This document shows positions 30,861 through 56,052 of a DNA stretch of 64,000 nucleotides, in pieces. Below the pieces are notes generated by a model. That model was not told where the DNA came from and did not search any database. It saw nothing but the letters and a program-made list of their open reading frames with translations. Each line of letters starts with the position of its first letter. The stretch's first letter is position 1. The stretch comes from an uncultured Gammaproteobacteria bacterium. Lineage in GTDB: Bacteria; Patescibacteriota; Patescibacteriia; Magasanikbacterales; GWA2-37-8. The translations under genes were made by a program, and so were the position numbers. Where the stretch lies: contig CAZEEW010000001.1 in assembly GCA_964511375.1 (NCBI GenBank), positions 70,512-134,511 on the forward strand, read 5' to 3'.

Positions 30861-30933
30861 AAAAATCGCAAAATTTTTGCAATTTAATTATATCACATTA
30901 TAGAGTTATGATGAAGTAAGAAAAATATATTTG

Positions 30934-30942
30934 TGGTATACT
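30934..30942 (+). promoter_or_regulatory. Extended -10 element TGGTATACT driving island 1
   Basis: Same TGGTATA(A/C)T form as host promoters at 11952 and 40757(-). It ends 9 nt before the ATG at 30952. Confidence 0.4.
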
Positions 30943-30951
30943 CTAAGTGAG

Positions 30952-31285
30952 ATGCTGGCTCGGAGAGGAGGTGAGCGATGAGCCAGTTCAAGCGAGGTCT
31001 ACCACCCGACCTCAAAGCAATGGGTGGCCAGGTTTTCTGCCGGGAGCGGTTTGGTACAATCGTCGGTTACTCAACCGACGCCGCTCGAGGCAGACGGACT
31101 CTTCTTGTTCTCCAGGTCGTTCCTGGGTTCGGGGCGCAGGTGCTCCGGATTTCGGAGAATGACCACGATCTCTCGCGTGTGAGACTGGCGACGGCTTCGC
31201 CATGCTAGCCCCACGCGATAAGAAGGAGGCCTCGTGGCCTGCCTGATTCTCTTTGGCGCCGTTAAACACCTCGCGGCGCCCCTTC
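30952..31285 (+). other. GC-rich island 1 (foreign-composition cassette)
   Basis: Abrupt AT-to-GC switch at ATGCTGGCTCG. Contains an SD, a 76-aa ORF and G/C hairpins at 31227-31240 and 31255-31280. Confidence 0.8.
30978..31208 (+). CDS. Hypothetical 76-aa protein (island 1)
   Basis: A strong SD (GGAGAGGAGG) lies 6 nt upstream of the ATG. No family recognised. Confidence 0.55.
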   Translation: MSQFKRGLPPDLKAMGGQVFCRERFGTIVGYSTDAARGRRTLLVLQVVPGFGAQVLRISENDHDLSRVRLATASPC

Positions 31286-31288
31286 ATT

Positions 31289-31325
31289 AAAAAAAATAAT
31301 TAGCCGCCCTGATTTAAGAGCGGCT
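31289..31325 (-). terminator. Intrinsic terminator of the DNPH1-like gene
   Basis: On the minus strand: AGCCGC-N12-GCGGCT followed by a T-run (aattatttttttt). Confidence 0.7.
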
Positions 31326-31736
31326 ATTGTTAAATATTTGTTCAATCAGAACGGGTAAATTGTCTGGCGTGGCGTAAGTGAAAATCTCTACTTCCGTATT
31401 GCCCTTAATCATAGCGGATAATTTGTAGGTGTCCTTGCCTTGGTAAAGACAGACAACTCGTTTTTTTTCGTTCAAAGCCTGAGCTATTTCATATCCTACA
31501 CCCAAGCTTGGTGTGGTTACTTCAGCAATTACAACATTACTATTTAAAATGTTTTTCATTTCTCTGTCATGAATTTCCTCTTTACTTAGGTCGGTTTCCC
31601 CGTATACAGTAATATTTTCGTCAGCGACCTGAGCAGATAAAACTCGGCCGTATTTTTGTAGTTCCCCAACTATTGTTGCATATATTGGCAACATGGCCCG
31701 TCCGCCCCGTATCGAACCAGTAAAGAAGATGTTCAT
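31314..31736 (-). CDS. 2'-deoxynucleoside 5'-phosphate N-hydrolase (DNPH1/Rcl-like; nucleoside 2-deoxyribosyltransferase fold)
   Basis: FTGSIRGGR, VVIAEVTTPSLGVGYEIAQA and LSAMIKG match the recalled DNPH1 motifs FCGSIRGGR, VVVAEVTQPSLGVGYELG and LSAMIRG. Confidence 0.8.
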   Translation of the reverse strand: MNIFFTGSIRGGRAMLPIYATIVGELQKYGRVLSAQVADENITVYGETDLSKEEIHDREMKNILNSNVVIAEVTTPSLGVGYEIAQALNEKKRVVCLYQGKDTYKLSAMIKGNTEVEIFTYATPDNLPVLIEQIFNNSRS

Positions 31737-31747
31737 AAAACTTAATG

Positions 31748-32539
31748 TTAATATCTTGGCGTATTGCTTAATTCCCAGATAAATTGAAATAAATTAGATT
31801 GCATTGTAATCAGGTTTTGATCTTCCAGTAAGAGTATGATGGGTTCGCGTCCATCGTGAGTAACGTAAAGCATTTTGGAATTATAAAGGTAAATGTCTTG
31901 GGTGGCAATCTTAAGGTTGTTTGGCCCGAGACGATGCCAAGTATAGTCATTAAGCGGTTGCTTTCTTATCCATTCCAAACTAGCAGTGCTATTTTCCACT
32001 AAAATATTGAGCGGCAGACGCTTATTAAGCCTTCTGACTTCAAAATCTTCTTGCACTTCTAAGCCGGGAATTTTTGGCGTACCAATATGTTTGTAATAAT
32101 AAATTATCTTAGGGTTAGAGCGCAAGATGTCTTCTAAGGCTGATTGGTAACCATGAATACCTTGAAAGATCGATGTGTCCGGTCGTTTAGACGAAAGACG
32201 GTAAGCAGCTTTTAGTTCAGGAATAATCTCCTGGATAGTTAGAGTGGTGTTTTTGAATTCCTGCCCGCGTTTGTCTAGCAATTCATATAACCGGTCGGGG
32301 TTTTCCACAATATATTCTGTTCGCCAACCCGCCTTTTCTCGTGTAACAAGGCCGGCTTCTTGTAAATTGTTTAGAACATAATACAATATGGTACGCGGGA
32401 AAGGTGTGCGTACTTGTAGTTCTTGTACTGTGCTTTTGGGATGCGTCAATAATAAAGAGTAAAGCAGGGACTCATTCTCCCCCAGCCCTAAATTCCGCAG
32501 GGCCTCTACCACCCGACTTTTTGTTTGTTTTTTAGCCAT
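31748..32539 (-). CDS. TrmB-family transcriptional regulator (second copy)
   Basis: N-terminal winged HTH (ESLLYSLLLTHPKSTVQELQVRTPFPRTILYYVLNNLQEAGLV). Architecture is paralogous to 10939..11676. Confidence 0.7.
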   Translation of the reverse strand: MAKKQTKSRVVEALRNLGLGENESLLYSLLLTHPKSTVQELQVRTPFPRTILYYVLNNLQEAGLVTREKAGWRTEYIVENPDRLYELLDKRGQEFKNTTLTIQEIIPELKAAYRLSSKRPDTSIFQGIHGYQSALEDILRSNPKIIYYYKHIGTPKIPGLEVQEDFEVRRLNKRLPLNILVENSTASLEWIRKQPLNDYTWHRLGPNNLKIATQDIYLYNSKMLYVTHDGREPIILLLEDQNLITMQSNLFQFIWELSNTPRY

Positions 32540-32822
32540 ATGCGCTAGAATAACAGCTTTTTAATTATTTGTCAAATACATATTTACAATCTCATGCCTG
32601 GACTATTGCTAGGTATCCAAAAGTCTGCTATTATAAACGATCATCTTCAAAAAAAGAAGATGTTCAAATAATATTTACAAGCTCCTTAAAATTCGCAAAA
32701 AAGGCAAATTCAATCTGGCGAACCAACATTTTCTTTTAATTTTAGAAAAAAATGCTGGCTCGCCAGAAGGTCGTTCCTCACGGTGGGGGATGACTGGAAG
32801 GTAAGTTGGAAAGGAAAAAGAG

Positions 32823-33986
32823 ATGGAGTCGGTCCGTCTCTTGTCCTGGAGCTTCGTTCACGTGCTCCAGATGATTCTCAACCTCGCCCGGCGCGGCGGG
32901 GTCGACTTCTCCAACCCCGGTCTCCTCCGTGAGGCCCTGAACATCCGGGCCTGGGAGGCCCTCGACGAGTTGGGGCGCGACCCCAAACACTTGTGGCGGC
33001 TTACGCCGCCCCTGCACCAGGTTTACTCTCGGGCCCTGGCTTACGGAGCTGGGGACAGGTGTAGCCATAATCAGGTCTACATGGCAGCCGAACAAGCCAC
33101 CAGTCTCGCCGAGGTAGCACTCGGTGAGGTGGGGTACAGTTGGCTGTCGCGGCGTCAGGTTGCTGCTCAGCTGATCTACGCACTGGCGAATGAGATCCAG
33201 GGCGATCCGCACGCCCTGGACGCAGCCGAGCGTCAGTCCCGCTCCGAGGCCTTCCTCCGGGAGTTCTACGGGTGCGGGTGGGACGACCCCGACCCCGAGC
33301 TCCAGAAGGAAGTTGAGTACTACGAGCGCCAGCTCGGGGTGCTCTACTGCCTCAGGGCGATCGCGGTGCTCACCGAGCATCCCGAGCTCGACCTCGTCGA
33401 GCTGACCCGCCAGGGCCTCATGAAGTACGGGGTCGTGGACACCCGGGGCCGCCGGGTGTGCTACTGGTGCTCCGGTGCCCCCTGCGTCTGCGGTGGGCGG
33501 AAGGGCGGGATGAAGGCCCGCCGGCCGGAGATCACCTCCGACCTCGTCTGGGCCCGGGGACTGCCGGAGATGGACCAGCACATGGTCGTCTACGGCGTGT
33601 CTCGGAACTCGGCCATCAACGCCCTCGCGGGTGTGGTTCGCTCCCTGTCGGAGGACGGTGGGGAGTACGGATGGATCAACCTCATGTCCCGCTGTGGCGG
33701 GACGAACCGGGGAATCCAAGAGAGGCTCGGCTGCCTCTACCTCGGCAGCAGCCGGCACCCCCGCATGGCGGCCAAGAAGTTCGACGCCGAGGGCGTGCCT
33801 CTCATCGAGGGGCTCTACTCGGAGGCGGCGGACGCCGTCGTCTCCTGGCCCTGCCTCGTGACACAGGCCTTCGGTCTGCAGTTCACAAGGTCGGTCTTAC
33901 TCGGTCTCCAGCACATGGCCGATGGCGCCGGGGTCACGCTCGAGACCCCAGACGATCTGACCCGGACCATCCCGGTCCGCGAGTAG
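32823..33986 (+). CDS. Hypothetical 387-aa protein with Cys cluster CYWCSGAPCVC (island 2)
   Basis: Longest ORF of the island and G/C-dominated third positions in this frame. The other long ORFs here are off-frame or antisense shadows. No family recognised. Confidence 0.7.
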   Translation: MESVRLLSWSFVHVLQMILNLARRGGVDFSNPGLLREALNIRAWEALDELGRDPKHLWRLTPPLHQVYSRALAYGAGDRCSHNQVYMAAEQATSLAEVALGEVGYSWLSRRQVAAQLIYALANEIQGDPHALDAAERQSRSEAFLREFYGCGWDDPDPELQKEVEYYERQLGVLYCLRAIAVLTEHPELDLVELTRQGLMKYGVVDTRGRRVCYWCSGAPCVCGGRKGGMKARRPEITSDLVWARGLPEMDQHMVVYGVSRNSAINALAGVVRSLSEDGGEYGWINLMSRCGGTNRGIQERLGCLYLGSSRHPRMAAKKFDAEGVPLIEGLYSEAADAVVSWPCLVTQAFGLQFTRSVLLGLQHMADGAGVTLETPDDLTRTIPVRE

Positions 33987-34187
33987 TCGCCTCGCCGGCT
34001 GTCCTTCGGGGCGGTCGGTGGGCATGGTTTAGAGGTGGGGCGTTTCTCTTAGGGGAGACGCTTGCGCCTCCCCTATCCCAGTATTTCTTAATTCAAGGAA
34101 TGTTGAGATAGGAGGCTCGTAGACCGACGTGTTTTCGTTGGGCGCTCGGTTGAGCGCACGGCGAAACACCAAACAGAGGGAGGACAA

Positions 34188-34547
34188 ATGGTCCACAAGG
34201 ATCTCAGAATCGAGCTGGTGCTCGGCGGCGTCACTTTTATCATCGTTGGCTTCCTCGAGGCAGGCGAGGAAGTGATCACCGGTGATGAAATGAAGCGTCG
34301 GCTGGCGGCCCGCTCCTTGCGGCTCATCCACGGGGCGGATTTCGAGCACTTCTCTCGCTACCGCGAGGATTTGCCGAAAGAACTCCGACCTCACCTACTG
34401 GCCACAGACCAGTGTGCTCCAGAGTGCCAGAAAGAGACGACCGTCTTCGAGTTCTTCGAAGATGTGGAAGTGTGGCACTCGTTCTGGCACAACCTTTGCG
34501 GCCCGACATGGGGCCACAACGTCTTGGCGGTGTGCTGTTGTGTGTAG
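34188..34547 (+). CDS. Hypothetical 119-aa protein ending in CCCV (island 2)
   Basis: Strong SD AGAGGGAGGACAA-ATG and GC-rich codons. No family recognised. Confidence 0.6.
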   Translation: MVHKDLRIELVLGGVTFIIVGFLEAGEEVITGDEMKRRLAARSLRLIHGADFEHFSRYREDLPKELRPHLLATDQCAPECQKETTVFEFFEDVEVWHSFWHNLCGPTWGHNVLAVCCCV

Positions 34548-34555
34548 GAGGGAGC

Positions 34556-34585
34556 GGTGCCGGCGGGGGACCCCCCGCCGGCACC
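34556..34585 (+). terminator. G/C hairpin closing island 2
   Basis: GGTGCCGGCGGGGG-a-CCCCCGCCGGCACC. The T-run begins only 9 nt later, so this is not a canonical intrinsic terminator. Confidence 0.55.
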
Positions 34586-34691
34586 CGTAGTCCCTTTTAA
34601 TTTAAATCACTAGCGTTGTTTTATTATAACTTACCTCTTGATGTACTAAATAATTATTTGTGATATACTTCATTTATTCTAATTCTTAATT

Positions 34692-35315
34692 ATGACCCCC
34701 AACAAAATACAGGAGATCATCACGTTTTTAAATCGTGCTAATGAGCTAAAAGCTGTACCACGGTTCAGTGCTTCTTTAAAAGAAGGTGGAGATACAGTTG
34801 CCGAGCATTCTTGGCGACTAGCTCTCATGACATTTATCATCGCCCAAGAATGTAATTTAGATATCAATCTTGAGAAGGCTTTAGTTTTTTCGCTTTTGCA
34901 CGACTTGGCTGAAGCCAAAACCGGAGATATCGACGGGTATTTGGTCGCCACTCAAAAAGTATCTCTGAAAGATAAAGAAGCGGCTGAAGAAAATGCCATG
35001 CATGAAATGACCGATGATCTTTCCTTTGGTGAATGGATTTACCATATTTGGGAGGAATATGAAAAACAAGAGATAATTGAAGCTAAATTGGTTAAAGCTC
35101 TCGATAAAATTGAAGCCTACTTGCATATTATGGATACAGGCGTAGAGGCTTATATACCAACAGAGTTTCATGCCGACTATGCAGATAAAGCTGTGGCTGC
35201 TTTCGACGCCGCTACTTCTCATTTCCCCGAGCTTAAGGACTTATTAGAAGCTGTAAAAATCGCTTTAAGGGAAAAACTTGAGGCCCGAGGAGTTAGTTGG
35301 GAGAGCAAAGTCTAA
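34692..35315 (+). CDS. HD-domain phosphohydrolase (YfbR-like 5'-deoxynucleotidase)
   Basis: HSWRLALM ... LLHDLAEAKTGDI, the HD motif pattern of the YfbR family. Confidence 0.8.
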   Translation: MTPNKIQEIITFLNRANELKAVPRFSASLKEGGDTVAEHSWRLALMTFIIAQECNLDINLEKALVFSLLHDLAEAKTGDIDGYLVATQKVSLKDKEAAEENAMHEMTDDLSFGEWIYHIWEEYEKQEIIEAKLVKALDKIEAYLHIMDTGVEAYIPTEFHADYADKAVAAFDAATSHFPELKDLLEAVKIALREKLEARGVSWESKV

Positions 35316-35325
35316 ATATAATTTT

Positions 35326-35901
35326 ATGGCAAATTCGGAAATAGAAATCAAAGTTAATATTGAAAACATGGATAATTTAACAAAGTTTTTAGAAGAAAAT
35401 GCCATGTTTAAATTGTCCACCCGTCAGATTGATGAATACTTTAATGCCCCAGATAGAGATTTTTTGGCTATCCGTCCGGTTACTGAATGGTTGCGTCTTC
35501 GGCAGACCAGAGAGGCGGTTCTGATAACTTACAAAAAGGCGCACTATACTACGGAGGGGAAGCTGAATTTCCGTGACGAGTTTGAAACTATAGTTGGTGA
35601 CATCGATCAAGCCAGAAAAATTCTTTTGTCTCTTGGTTATACTCCATTGGTTACAGTTAACAAAGTTCGCAAAATCTGGCGTTACCAGGAGTATGAAGTA
35701 GCCCTAGATGAAGTACAGGGATTAGGGATATTTGTAGAAATTGAGTATAAAGGTGAAGACCCAAGCAACCCAAAGTTAATCACTGACCAAATGATTGAGT
35801 TTTTACGGAAAGTTGATTGTGGAGAGATCAAACGGCACCACTCTGGTTACCCTTACATTATGCTTCTTCCTAGTGAGGCGCGTTACGATGTTATAACATA
35901 A
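35326..35901 (+). CDS. CYTH-domain protein (class IV adenylate cyclase/triphosphate tunnel enzyme)
   Basis: N-terminal EIEIKVNI (ExExK) motif and about 190 aa. The ATG at 35326 is preferred over the TTG at 35278, which overlaps the upstream gene. Confidence 0.8.
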   Translation: MANSEIEIKVNIENMDNLTKFLEENAMFKLSTRQIDEYFNAPDRDFLAIRPVTEWLRLRQTREAVLITYKKAHYTTEGKLNFRDEFETIVGDIDQARKILLSLGYTPLVTVNKVRKIWRYQEYEVALDEVQGLGIFVEIEYKGEDPSNPKLITDQMIEFLRKVDCGEIKRHHSGYPYIMLLPSEARYDVIT

Positions 35902-51694: not shown

Positions 51695-51751
51695 CTTATG
51701 TATTCCATTTAGCTTCTCTGTAGTCTTTAGCTAACAAGTGTTTGCTAGTTA

Positions 51752-52066
51752 AGGGCCGGGACAGAGAAGCTGTCCGCGGGTTAAAGAGTATGGGAACAGC
51801 TAGGTGGTTCGTCGATCACCGCCTTCGCTGTAGAACAGCGAGGGTAGCGATTGAGAAGAACACACCTCCCACAACCGTCACGCGCTTAGGTTCGCGCGCA
51901 AGATCGTGGAACAAGCCGTCCCCGGTAAGGTCACCGCTCGCGCAGGCCAGGAGTCCGCAGATGATGCTTGCGAACACGGCTCCAGCCACGAGAGCGAGGA
52001 CTAGCCGAACGATCGCTTGATCACACTGCTGGGTCATTTGACCCCTCCATGCCCCCGCAGGGGCAA
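51752..52066 (-). other. GC-rich island 3 (foreign-composition cassette)
   Basis: Abrupt composition switch on both sides. Hairpin GCCCC-tgcg-GGGGC lies upstream of the SD, and GGACAG-N5-CTGTCC lies downstream of the stop. Confidence 0.8.
51816..52037 (-). CDS. Hypothetical 73-aa two-TM membrane protein (island 3)
   Basis: SD GGAGGGGTCAA-ATG at the internal Met of the 91-aa ORF. Two hydrophobic helices (IVRLVLALVAGAVFASIICGLLA; VTVVGGVFFSIATLAVL). Confidence 0.6.
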   Translation of the reverse strand: MTQQCDQAIVRLVLALVAGAVFASIICGLLACASGDLTGDGLFHDLAREPKRVTVVGGVFFSIATLAVLQRRR

Positions 52067-52081
52067 GTTGGAATAGACAAG

Positions 52082-52110
52082 ATTTAATCACGAAAATGAG
52101 TTATAGTCAA
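52082..52110 (-). promoter_or_regulatory. TTGACT-N17-TTAAAT promoter-like element reading into island 3
   Basis: Counted on the minus strand. Lies in the AT-rich gap shared with the divergent gene at 52121. Confidence 0.4.
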
Positions 52111-55291: not shown

Positions 55292-55349
55292 CACATTCAT
55301 ACATTGGACGTGATTTGTTTTTTAATAGCGAAAATTGCTGTTAAAAAAC

Positions 55350-55988
55350 ATGTCTCGTCCAGGGCGGACGGGAGTAAACCCGCAACGGGAGAGTTCAGAT
55401 GAAGAGCCTGGTGTCGTGTTTCGTGCTGGTCGCCCTGTTCCTCAACCTGTTCGGCTGCATCGAAGCGGCCGAGTTCAACCACTCCGACGCGACGACCGTG
55501 TCGGAGGACGTGGCTAGCGTCCAAGACGTCTCCTTGCCAGAGGAGAACGACATCGCCATCAAGATTCCCCGGGCGGAGTGCCCGGAGGCAACAGCCGGAC
55601 CATACACGGTCCGAGTTGTGATCGACGCCACGACCTGGGTCAGGATCTCGTCCGAGGTAGAGCGTGTCTTCCTCAGCCGGGAGCTCGATGCAGATCGGAT
55701 GGACACGGCCGAAATTCGCGTCGAGTCCGCCGGGTGCGATTTCCAGTTCGCCATCAGCAACAACTCCACGGAGGTCGCGCACGTCTCTGTGGAAGCCCCG
55801 ACAGGGGTTTCCATCACCATCCGGTACGCCCGTGGCGGATCCGAGACCGTTCCCGCGAACGGTTTCAAGCAGGCGATCGTCTACACGGTCGGTAATGTGA
55901 AGTACTACTTCCATTACCAGCCGCCGGGCTGAGCACCAAGGGCGGCAAGTCGCCGCCCGCGAGGCTGCCGCATCGTACTGGCCCTCGT
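55350..55988 (+). other. GC-rich island 4 (foreign-composition cassette)
   Basis: The composition switch falls exactly at an ATG (55350). Contains a lipoprotein ORF, with hairpin GGGCGGC-N5-GCCGCCC (55940-55958) after the stop. Confidence 0.8.
55399..55932 (+). CDS. Hypothetical lipoprotein, 177 aa (island 4)
   Basis: Signal peptide with lipobox LFGC, very high G/C at third positions, and SD-like GGGAGAG 7 nt upstream. Confidence 0.7.
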   Translation: MKSLVSCFVLVALFLNLFGCIEAAEFNHSDATTVSEDVASVQDVSLPEENDIAIKIPRAECPEATAGPYTVRVVIDATTWVRISSEVERVFLSRELDADRMDTAEIRVESAGCDFQFAISNNSTEVAHVSVEAPTGVSITIRYARGGSETVPANGFKQAIVYTVGNVKYYFHYQPPG

Positions 55989-56052
55989 ATTCATTATTAA
56001 TCCTTTGGGGTTGGTAATGAGTACTTACTTCCAGTACGCTTGCGAATAAAAA

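Follow-up and report, generated by a model that had tools for sequence, protein, structure and literature searches.

What is encoded by a GC-rich two-gene block in the genome of a Patescibacteria (candidate phyla radiation, CPR) member, and why does it lie where it does? Patescibacteria lack de novo nucleotide synthesis and rely on salvage, and the way in which dUTP and damaged deoxynucleoside triphosphates (dNTPs) are kept out of their DNA is poorly charted. We analyzed a stretch of 64,000 nucleotides from contig CAZEEW010000001.1 (hereafter the window), in which the block at 32749-34638 carries open reading frame (ORF) A, a structured spacer and ORF B. Judging from a predicted structure, conserved motifs and gene neighborhood, we put at roughly 55% the probability that ORF A is a highly divergent all-α (deoxy)nucleoside triphosphate pyrophosphatase of the dimeric dUTPase/MazG/T4 gp56 kind, which carries an added metal knuckle and serves deoxynucleotide sanitation or salvage under a TrmB-like regulator.

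ORF A belongs to a conserved family with candidate metal-binding residues

A preliminary description of this DNA had taken ORF A for an ORFan, a one-off foreign insert. We found five homologs at 42-69% identity in a word-indexed search of 5.8 billion clusters, and 20 family representatives down to ~21% identity in a full hidden Markov model (HMM) scan of 1.84 billion protein representatives. Among the matches found, the family is confined to Patescibacteria/Saccharibacteria-type contigs. Across six homologs, the proportion of nonsynonymous differences (pN) is 0.23-0.48 while that of synonymous differences (pS) is saturated at 0.73-0.85, showing that the frame is under purifying selection, far from the unconserved frame with a ratio of nonsynonymous to synonymous substitution rates (dN/dS) of about 1 that had been considered. 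ORF A is therefore no isolated insert, as its relatives (21-69% identical) are maintained by selection and occupy the same position between TrmB/DNPH1-like and HD genes (see below). The main features of the protein are the following:

32823-33986, plus strand: ORF A, 387 aa, all-α protein with a dimeric-dUTPase-like fold, rare Patescibacteria family (ORF, homolog and model data)
33459-33524, plus strand: Cys knuckle C213-x2-C216-x4-C221-x-C223 followed by the Gly/basic loop GGRKGGMKARR (23-sequence alignment)
33591-33665, plus strand: most conserved family motif, Y257..R261-N262-S-A..R273-x3-E277-x3-E281, with the candidate first acidic metal-ligand pair
33822-33848, plus strand: motif E334-A-A-D337-x4-W342, similar to the EExGD motif of MazG, candidate second acidic pair

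In the alignment of 23 family sequences, R52, K201, Y202, C213, C221, Y257, N262, R273, E277 and E281 are invariant, and at least 90% of the sequences share C223, D337 and W342; most clades retain E334. The family version of the Cys cluster, C-x2-[C/D/E]-x4-C-x-[C/D], always offers four potential metal ligands, which fits a small metal knuckle. All motifs quoted for ORF A in the preliminary description (CYWCSGAPCVC, GGRKGGMKARR and VYGVSRNSAINALAGVVRSL) are found in the sequence. A stretch that had been regarded as resembling a helix-turn-helix (HTH) does not bear out this resemblance: no HTH family of Pfam or NCBIfam matches at residues 256-275, and the stretch is the very motif that contains the invariant Y257, N262, R273, E277 and E281. 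Judged by its conservation, it reads as an active-site motif and not as a DNA-binding helix. Neither ORF A nor ORF B matched the Pfam, NCBIfam, PHROGs, PADLOC or PDB sequence libraries, in agreement with the earlier statement that both fall outside recognized families.

The predicted fold of ORF A resembles all-α nucleoside triphosphate pyrophosphatases

An AlphaFold model of ORF A, built from its six closest sequences, is entirely helical (pTM 0.81, mean pLDDT 74.5), with confidence dropping below a pLDDT of 50 at residues 212-234, i.e., the Cys/basic loop. Its all-helical core matches the conserved four-helix bundle of the all-α nucleoside triphosphate (NTP) pyrophosphohydrolase fold, and its best structural matches are enzymes of the dimeric dUTPase/MazG all-α NTP pyrophosphatase superfamily. 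The fold thus points to a known and fairly mundane superfamily. Members of this superfamily form a four-helix bundle with two acidic pairs, ExxE (ExxxE in DUF2166) and ExxD/DxxxD (PMC2954211). In ORF A, E277-x3-E281 and E334-x2-D337 lie on separate predicted helices, and we propose these residues as candidate equivalents of the dUTPase metal ligands. Two weak, independent sequence matches converge on the E-x-x-D motif. The best family-model score, to Pfam MazG (PF03819; E 0.005, 17.5 bits compared with a cutoff of 22), was obtained for one of the 23 members (P0015) and falls on the region of this motif. Furthermore, hhalign pairs EAAD...W of ORF A with EEMGD of a small MazG-like protein encoded next to the ORF A homolog at locus L005 (retrieved loci are numbered with the prefix L). 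This small protein is itself without a PDB relative.

Comparison to characterized enzymes shows how far the likeness extends. Like the dimeric dUTPases of C. jejuni (1w2y), a staphylococcal phage (5myd) and Leishmania (2yay), ORF A has two conserved candidate acidic pairs on separate predicted helices and is linked in the genome to the dTTP pathway and to dNMP-processing genes, and in one relative a canonical dUTPase fills its slot. It differs from them by the lack of significant sequence or HMM similarity, by ~2-fold greater length, by the order and spacing of its motifs (E-x3-E, ~53 residues, E-x2-D), and by an inserted Cys4-type knuckle with the GGRKGG loop. With the MazG/DCTPP1/T4 gp56-type pyrophosphatases it shares the C-terminal E-x-x-D...W, which aligns with EExGD of MazG, and the sanitation/salvage context, including the small MazG-like protein beside it in L002 and L005. 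MazG domains, however, measure ~80-100 residues and form their four-helix bundle by dimerizing, and the matches of ORF A to them are far under the family thresholds. Lastly, the DUF2166 NTPase YP_001813558.1 (PMC2954211) has a first pair of E-x3-E type (Glu43/Glu47) with the spacing of E277/E281, whereas it comprises 170 residues, lacks a Cys knuckle and has no detectable sequence match to ORF A.

Several observations weigh against the assignment. Pfam, NCBIfam and PDB profile searches gave nothing significant for the family, the hhalign pairing has a probability of 0.5% and is not significant, and Foldseek, as proposed in the preliminary description, returned no match for the model in the PDB or among viral models. 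The pair E277-E281 lies within a low-confidence stretch of the model (residues 256-279), and E334 is absent from one clade (A'; see below). ORF A (387 aa) is roughly double the length of a dimeric dUTPase, and no internal duplication was detectable in it. Moreover, a nucleotide enzyme would account neither for the high GC of the block nor for the role of ORF B. Since none of the matches reaches family-level significance, we speak of a fold-level resemblance and not of established membership.

Other architectures were rejected. Duplication of a MazG-like module was dismissed as hhalign found nothing between the N- and C-terminal halves of ORF A. A trimeric β-fold dUTPase is contradicted by the all-helical model and by the lack of a PF00692 match. 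A TGT/DpdA-like enzyme, considered because of a GVG-like motif and a QueF neighbor in L001, was dropped because the model is all-helical and not a TIM barrel.

ORF A occupies a variable slot among nucleotide genes

Profile matches identify the genes on both sides of the block, bearing out their placement in the preliminary description:

31314-31736, minus strand: DNPH1-like gene (Nuc_deoxyrib_tr; Pfam profile match), divergent from ORF A
31748-32539, minus strand: TrmB-family regulator (PF01978; Pfam profile match), divergent from ORF A
34692-35315, plus strand: HD-domain 5'-deoxynucleotidase-like gene (HD_3/YfbR-like)
35278-35901, plus strand: CYTH gene

All retrieved ORF A loci are deoxynucleotide neighborhoods, and the ORF A family nearly always adjoins a TrmB-like regulator, a DNPH1-like gene and an HD 5'-deoxynucleotidase. 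In L002, L003 and L004, the TrmB-like regulator and the DNPH1-like (Nuc_deoxyrib_tr) gene lie divergently upstream of the ORF A homolog, and in L002, L003, L005 and L007 the HD 5'-deoxynucleotidase-like gene lies downstream of it, with the small MazG-like protein present in L002 and L005. Overall, an HD gene follows the slot in L002, L003, L005, L007, L008, L017 and L021. At L032, a family member that is 21% identical to ORF A (P0021) is preceded by TrmB, a DNPH1-like gene and thymidylate kinase; downstream of it lie a ThyA-like gene and a gene for a protein with weak similarity to DUF1599/Nmad1. In a Saccharibacteria metagenome-assembled genome (L001), QueF and isochorismatase genes lie upstream of the ORF A homolog.

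The same position is filled differently where ORF A is missing. L017 and L018 carry a canonical β-fold dUTPase (PF00692, E 7.6e-6) and a thymidine kinase (E 1.4e-22) in the slot, with an ITPase-type NTPase on the far side of TrmB, while the slot of L021 is taken by a Nuc_deoxyri_tr2 protein (E 8e-8) and a weakly matching Nudix-like protein (E 0.04). The presence of different nucleotide enzymes at one TrmB-adjacent position is a case of non-orthologous displacement, and no other indirect evidence speaks as strongly for a dUTPase-like or dNTP-pyrophosphatase role of ORF A.

Three further observations concern the slot. In one lineage, extra ORFans without a family match lie on either side of the ORF A homolog, in L004 (1495-1848, 117 aa) and L005 (1854-2369, 171 aa), further evidence that the slot is plastic. 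In L016-L018, which lack ORF A, the DNPH1-like gene lies directly upstream of HD on the same strand (e.g., L017 5509-6594), so that the two seem to be linked in function and merely parted by the slot in the window. At L032 (7355-9080), the thymidylate-synthase-like protein has 366 aa and its companion is a weak match to DUF1599 ('nucleotide modification associated domain 1'); this pair could serve pyrimidine hydroxymethylation or base modification, not plain dTMP synthesis.

A putative role in deoxynucleotide sanitation

Taken together, we propose that the operon occupies a variable slot beside a TrmB-family regulator, within a deoxynucleotide salvage and sanitation neighborhood of a CPR genome. 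Here, the acidic pairs E277/E281 and E334/D337 on separate helices would hold Mg2+, and ORF A would cleave a (deoxy)nucleoside triphosphate to the monophosphate and pyrophosphate, its likeliest substrate being dUTP or another pyrimidine or non-canonical dNTP. This product would pass to the DNPH1-like N-hydrolase and the HD 5'-deoxynucleotidase or, in one relative, to thymidylate kinase and the ThyA-like enzyme. We consider it probable that a structural metal is bound by the C-x2-[CDE]-x4-C-x-[CD] knuckle, and the GGRKGG loop may contact phosphates. If ORF A is indeed such a dUTPase or dNTP sanitizer, an unrecognized and structurally elaborated family would join the all-α NTP pyrophosphatase superfamily, and a gap in the annotation of many CPR genomes would be closed.

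ORF A is replaced by a distant family member in a close relative

In a close relative (L008-L011 and L022), the HD protein is 93-98% identical to that of the window, with 1.04 synonymous substitutions per site (dS) and a dN/dS of 0.04. The L008/L009 lineage carries A' instead of ORF A, a protein that belongs to a separate deep clade and shares 27% identity with ORF A and 57% with P0019. Homology between the window and L008/L009 begins again precisely at the stop codon of ORF A, and the 30 nt of leader present in L009 resemble the leader of the window. This replacement of ORF A by a distant-clade protein in a close relative is, next to the GC-richness of the slot across lineages with unrelated genes, the unusual feature that remains. 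Several independent assemblies end inside or at the edge of the island of ORF A, A' or ORF B (L009, L010 and L022 at position 1, L015 at position 1, L012 at its end), breaks that would fit strain heterogeneity or a drop in coverage.

The second gene is preceded by its own Shine-Dalgarno sequence and has a narrower distribution:

34188-34547, plus strand: ORF B, 119 aa, ends in ...AVCCCV, lineage-specific, preceded by a GGAGG Shine-Dalgarno sequence

Homologs of ORF B amounted to one cluster in the search of 5.8 billion clusters. The homolog in the L008/L009 lineage is 71% identical (dS 0.50, dN/dS 0.36), indicating fast evolution, and none of the other ORF A loci contains ORF B. It is therefore an accessory protein and no obligate partner of ORF A. 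While ORF B does end in CCCV, the Cys-richness ascribed to it is kept only in part: the homolog ends in VCCV, and among the cysteines only C80 and the vicinal CC at the terminus are retained. This argues against a CaaX-type lipidation motif, as the Cys at position -4 is not conserved (CCCV in the window, VCCV in the homolog) and the register is lost. The AlphaFold model of ORF B (pLDDT 41) is unusable. The conserved C-terminal vicinal cysteines of this lineage-specific accessory suggest metal or thiol chemistry. The earlier picture of two exotic ORFans inserted as foreign DNA holds for the anomalous composition and the rarity of ORF B, whereas ORF A is conserved and syntenic.

Such a swap between close strains also raises the question of whether the slot could be a conflict or defense island, in which ORF A, A' and the other cassettes would encode effectors that deplete or modify nucleotides to counter phages or competitors, ORF B would be a rapidly evolving immunity partner or modulator, and cassettes would be exchanged under diversifying pressure. 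Enzymes that deplete dNTPs are an established class of anti-phage defense. The replacement of ORF A by a 27%-identical A' beside a 93-98%-identical HD gene, the divergence of ORF B, the variation of slot cassettes by lineage, their anomalous composition and the extra ORFans in L004 and L005 would all be expected of such an island. Still, we consider this explanation unlikely. The genes on either side serve salvage and are of a housekeeping type, the dUTPase and thymidine kinase of the alternative cassettes belong to ordinary metabolism, and across distant relatives ORF A retains higher identity than its flanks (55-69% compared with 42-60%), unlike typical defense genes. PHROGs gave no match and PADLOC only a sub-threshold match of ORF A to JetD/DUF3323 (E 0.0019, 15.7 bits) that is absent from A' and P0021; JetD/DUF3323 was accordingly rejected as an assignment, being below threshold and not common to the other family members.

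The spacer is strongly structured and confined to few loci

Between the two genes and behind the second lie two structured elements:

33987-34187, plus strand: 201-nt spacer with four local hairpins, ending in the GGAGG Shine-Dalgarno sequence of ORF B (folding and alignment)
34556-34597, plus strand: intrinsic terminator with a 14-bp perfect G/C stem (34556-34569/34572-34585), a 2-nt loop and a T-rich tail

The spacer folds with -99.8 kcal/mol (z -6.5) in the sense direction compared with -65.5 (z -2.3) in antisense, in line with its earlier description as highly structured, and the hairpins AGGGGAG-N10-CTCCCCT (34051-34074) and GCGCTC-GGTT-GAGCGC (34142-34157) named there are indeed present. 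With 90.5% nucleotide identity in the related island, it is better conserved than any other segment of the block. Conservation of the spacer alone is nevertheless no proof of an RNA function, since the relative also keeps 88% identity in the intergenic region with a promoter that lies downstream of the island. All retrieved loci together contain only two distinct spacer sequences, too few for a test of covariation. An RNAalifold consensus shows 7 one-sided changes and 0 broken pairs, being fitted to those two sequences, whereas 7 of 13 stem substitutions break pairs of the minimum free energy (MFE) structure of the window alone, which is no better than random (P 0.24). The spacer is therefore a candidate for a functional RNA. 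An Rfam scan of the spacer yielded no family, the best score being 16.2 bits for gyrA RNA compared with a gathering score of 45. The 14-bp G/C hairpin that had been said to close the operon was confirmed, and L008 retains its stem through paired substitutions that turn G-C into A-T (GGTGCCGG/CCGGCACC to GGTACCGG/CCGGTACC); this compensatory change supports the operon end.

A structured spacer directly after ORF A, conserved in the related island, would suit a different role of the protein, namely that of a helical regulator or scaffold, e.g., a metal- or redox-sensing DNA- or RNA-binding protein acting with the spacer RNA and ORF B. The Cys knuckle followed by a basic patch, the all-helical fold and the lack of a catalytic family recognized by sequence are compatible with this idea. 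We nevertheless regard it as decidedly improbable. No HTH or other nucleic-acid-binding model matches ORF A, the supposed HTH contains invariant Y, N, R, E and E residues typical of a ligand or metal site, and the best structural matches are enzymes. Moreover, nearly every ORF A locus lacks both the spacer and ORF B, indicating that ORF A works without them. An RNA-guided element of the TnpB, IS110 or other kind using the spacer was discarded, as neither transposase/RuvC models nor element ends were found.

High GC recurs at the slot in several lineages

The block has a GC content of 0.629 over 32749-34638, compared with a window mean of 0.417, and peaks at 0.69 in 300-nt windows; it is the largest of 5 segments of the window with GC above 0.56. 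GC at codon positions 1/2/3 is 0.68/0.46/0.86 for ORF A and 0.62/0.38/0.74 for ORF B, while third-position GC (GC3) of the genes adjoining the block is 0.37-0.39. This anomaly extends to the relatives, in which GC3 of the slot gene compares with that of its neighbors as follows:

Window, ORF A: 0.86, neighbors 0.38
L009, A': 0.92, neighbors 0.44
L017, dUTPase: 0.91, neighbors 0.39-0.54
L007, ORF A homolog: 0.69, neighbors 0.40
L021, Nudix-like gene: 0.65, neighbors 0.40-0.51
L002, ORF A homolog: 0.61, neighbors 0.44
L003, ORF A homolog: 0.68, neighbors 0.54
L004/L005, ORF A homolog: 0.56, neighbors 0.43
L001, ORF A homolog: 0.50, neighbors 0.50
L032, ORF A homolog: 0.56, neighbors 0.56

The composition puzzle is therefore real and wider than the preliminary description had recognized. 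Since synonymous sites are saturated between all ORF A homologs, one ancient import followed by amelioration cannot explain a GC3 of 0.86. Either the slot is recently re-acquired in each lineage from unsampled GC-rich sources, or a local process keeps its GC high. A fixed slot that holds unrelated nucleotide enzymes with GC3 up to +0.5 above the genome offers a natural case for the study of non-orthologous displacement and of local composition upkeep. One could go further and picture the TrmB-adjacent slot as a dedicated Patescibacteria site for the capture and exchange of deoxynucleotide cassettes, held GC-high by GC-biased gene conversion at a recombination hotspot or by recurrent import from GC-rich host cells, with the metal-knuckle pyrophosphatase ORF A, a nucleotide-sensing spacer RNA and a vicinal-thiol ORF B forming a new three-part system; we offer this picture as a speculation with little chance of being correct.

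Horizontally acquired islands of atypical composition have been reported in Patescibacteria, including the acquisition of nucleotide-metabolism genes (PMC12455944). The block resembles them as a small segment of deviating GC with nucleotide-metabolism functions in a CPR genome. It differs in that its family is old and syntenic at its position, that no donor is identifiable, and that the GC excess recurs at one slot with unrelated genes in several lineages. This precedent, together with the sharp composition boundaries that coincide with the ends of the unit, the homology break with L008/L009 exactly at the ORF A stop codon upstream of a conserved spacer, and an 11-mer (ATGCTGGCTCG) shared with the start of a GC-rich segment at 30952, could suggest a mobile gene cassette, integron-like or site-specific, recently received from a GC-rich donor, with the spacer hairpins and boundary repeats as recombination sites. 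Such an origin is very improbable, as no integrase, transposase or repeated attC-like site lies nearby, viral contigs, phage records and plasmids hold no homologs, no GC-rich donor lineage with the ORF A family was found among 15 billion proteins, the family is syntenic across deep clades with saturated synonymous sites, which a single ancestral import cannot reconcile with a GC3 of 0.86, and 2 of 100 shuffles equaled or exceeded the number of matches to the 11-mer when one mismatch was allowed. By integron criteria, there is neither a recombinase among the neighbors nor a repeated structured site bounding the block. A phage or plasmid origin was rejected for lack of matches in IMG/VR contigs, INPHARED phages, PLSDB plasmids, PHROGs and BFVD.

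The block is a genuine operon

The coordinates and lengths of ORF A and ORF B agree with those reported in the preliminary description, and the GC-rich block lies where it had been placed there. An antisense ORF (326 aa) and an off-frame ORF (217 aa) within the block show shifted codon-position GC. The order GC3>GC1>GC2 is confined to the frames of ORF A and ORF B, identifying the other two as by-products of high GC. Codon-position GC thus supports two real genes in one transcription-unit-like block of anomalous composition. A large structured RNA in place of genes was rejected in view of this pattern, the kept frames and the absence of any Rfam match. ORF A is present at 100% identity and with identical flanks in two assemblies from independent read sets (L012 and L013), and a related island occurs in 4 further data sets. 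The agreement of L012 and L013 with the window excludes chimerism and an assembly artifact, and the absence of the block from the reads, raised earlier as a concern, is not what we observed. We read the block as a single operon that runs from a promoter and leader through ORF A, the structured spacer and ORF B to the terminator. Its upstream region contains two further features:

32606-32692, plus strand: AT-rich region with two σ70-like promoter matches (TTGCTA-17-TATTAT with TG; TTCAAA-18-TAAAAT)
32714-32767, plus strand: imperfect 26-nt inverted repeat, 85% complementary, spanning the AT-to-GC composition boundary

The two promoter matches are divergent from a TrmB promoter match on the minus strand (32575-32547). 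These promoter calls are matches to the σ70 consensus only, which may not be that of this lineage. The inverted repeat could be a leader hairpin or an operator, and its right arm holds the 11-mer ATGCTGGCTCG.

Further GC-rich segments in the window and beyond

A segment of ~390 nt at 30933-31325 (GC 0.57) lies between a pilB-like ATPase gene and the DNPH1-like gene. It contains no ORF with a coding GC pattern, has a fold z of -3.6 and lacks an Rfam match. The segment is preceded by a promoter-like box, TGgTATACT, and starts with the 11-mer ATGCTGGCTCG (30952), as does the block itself (32752). It could be a small RNA or a decayed cassette, and it did not match the cassette proteins of the relatives. 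Two AT-rich promoter-like boxes, TGAAGTAAGAAAAATATATTTGTGGTATACT (30912-30942) and TGATGTACTAAATAATTATTTGTGATATACT (34639-34669), are 77% identical, the first lying upstream of the GC-rich segment at 30950 and the second upstream of the HD gene.

A third GC-rich island at 55336-56023 (GC 0.60) carries an ORF of 177 aa (55399-55932, GC3 0.82) with an apparent lipoprotein-type N-terminus (MKSLVSCFVLVALFLNLFGC), only a sub-threshold match to DUF6694, and a GC-rich hairpin after the ORF. The fourth segment, 51747-52095 (GC 0.58), fills the gap between two large plus-strand genes; its minus strand offers a candidate small protein with two apparent hydrophobic segments (MTQQCDQAIVRLVLALVAGAVFASIICGLLAC...). 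Local alignments among the GC-rich segments of the window scored no higher than chance. Finally, L032, whose contig has ~51% GC, contains a single-gene island away from the TrmB slot (601-1563; 320-aa ORF, GC 0.71, GC3 0.89, weak acyltransferase match), which suggests that small GC-rich islands may be a general trait of these genomes.

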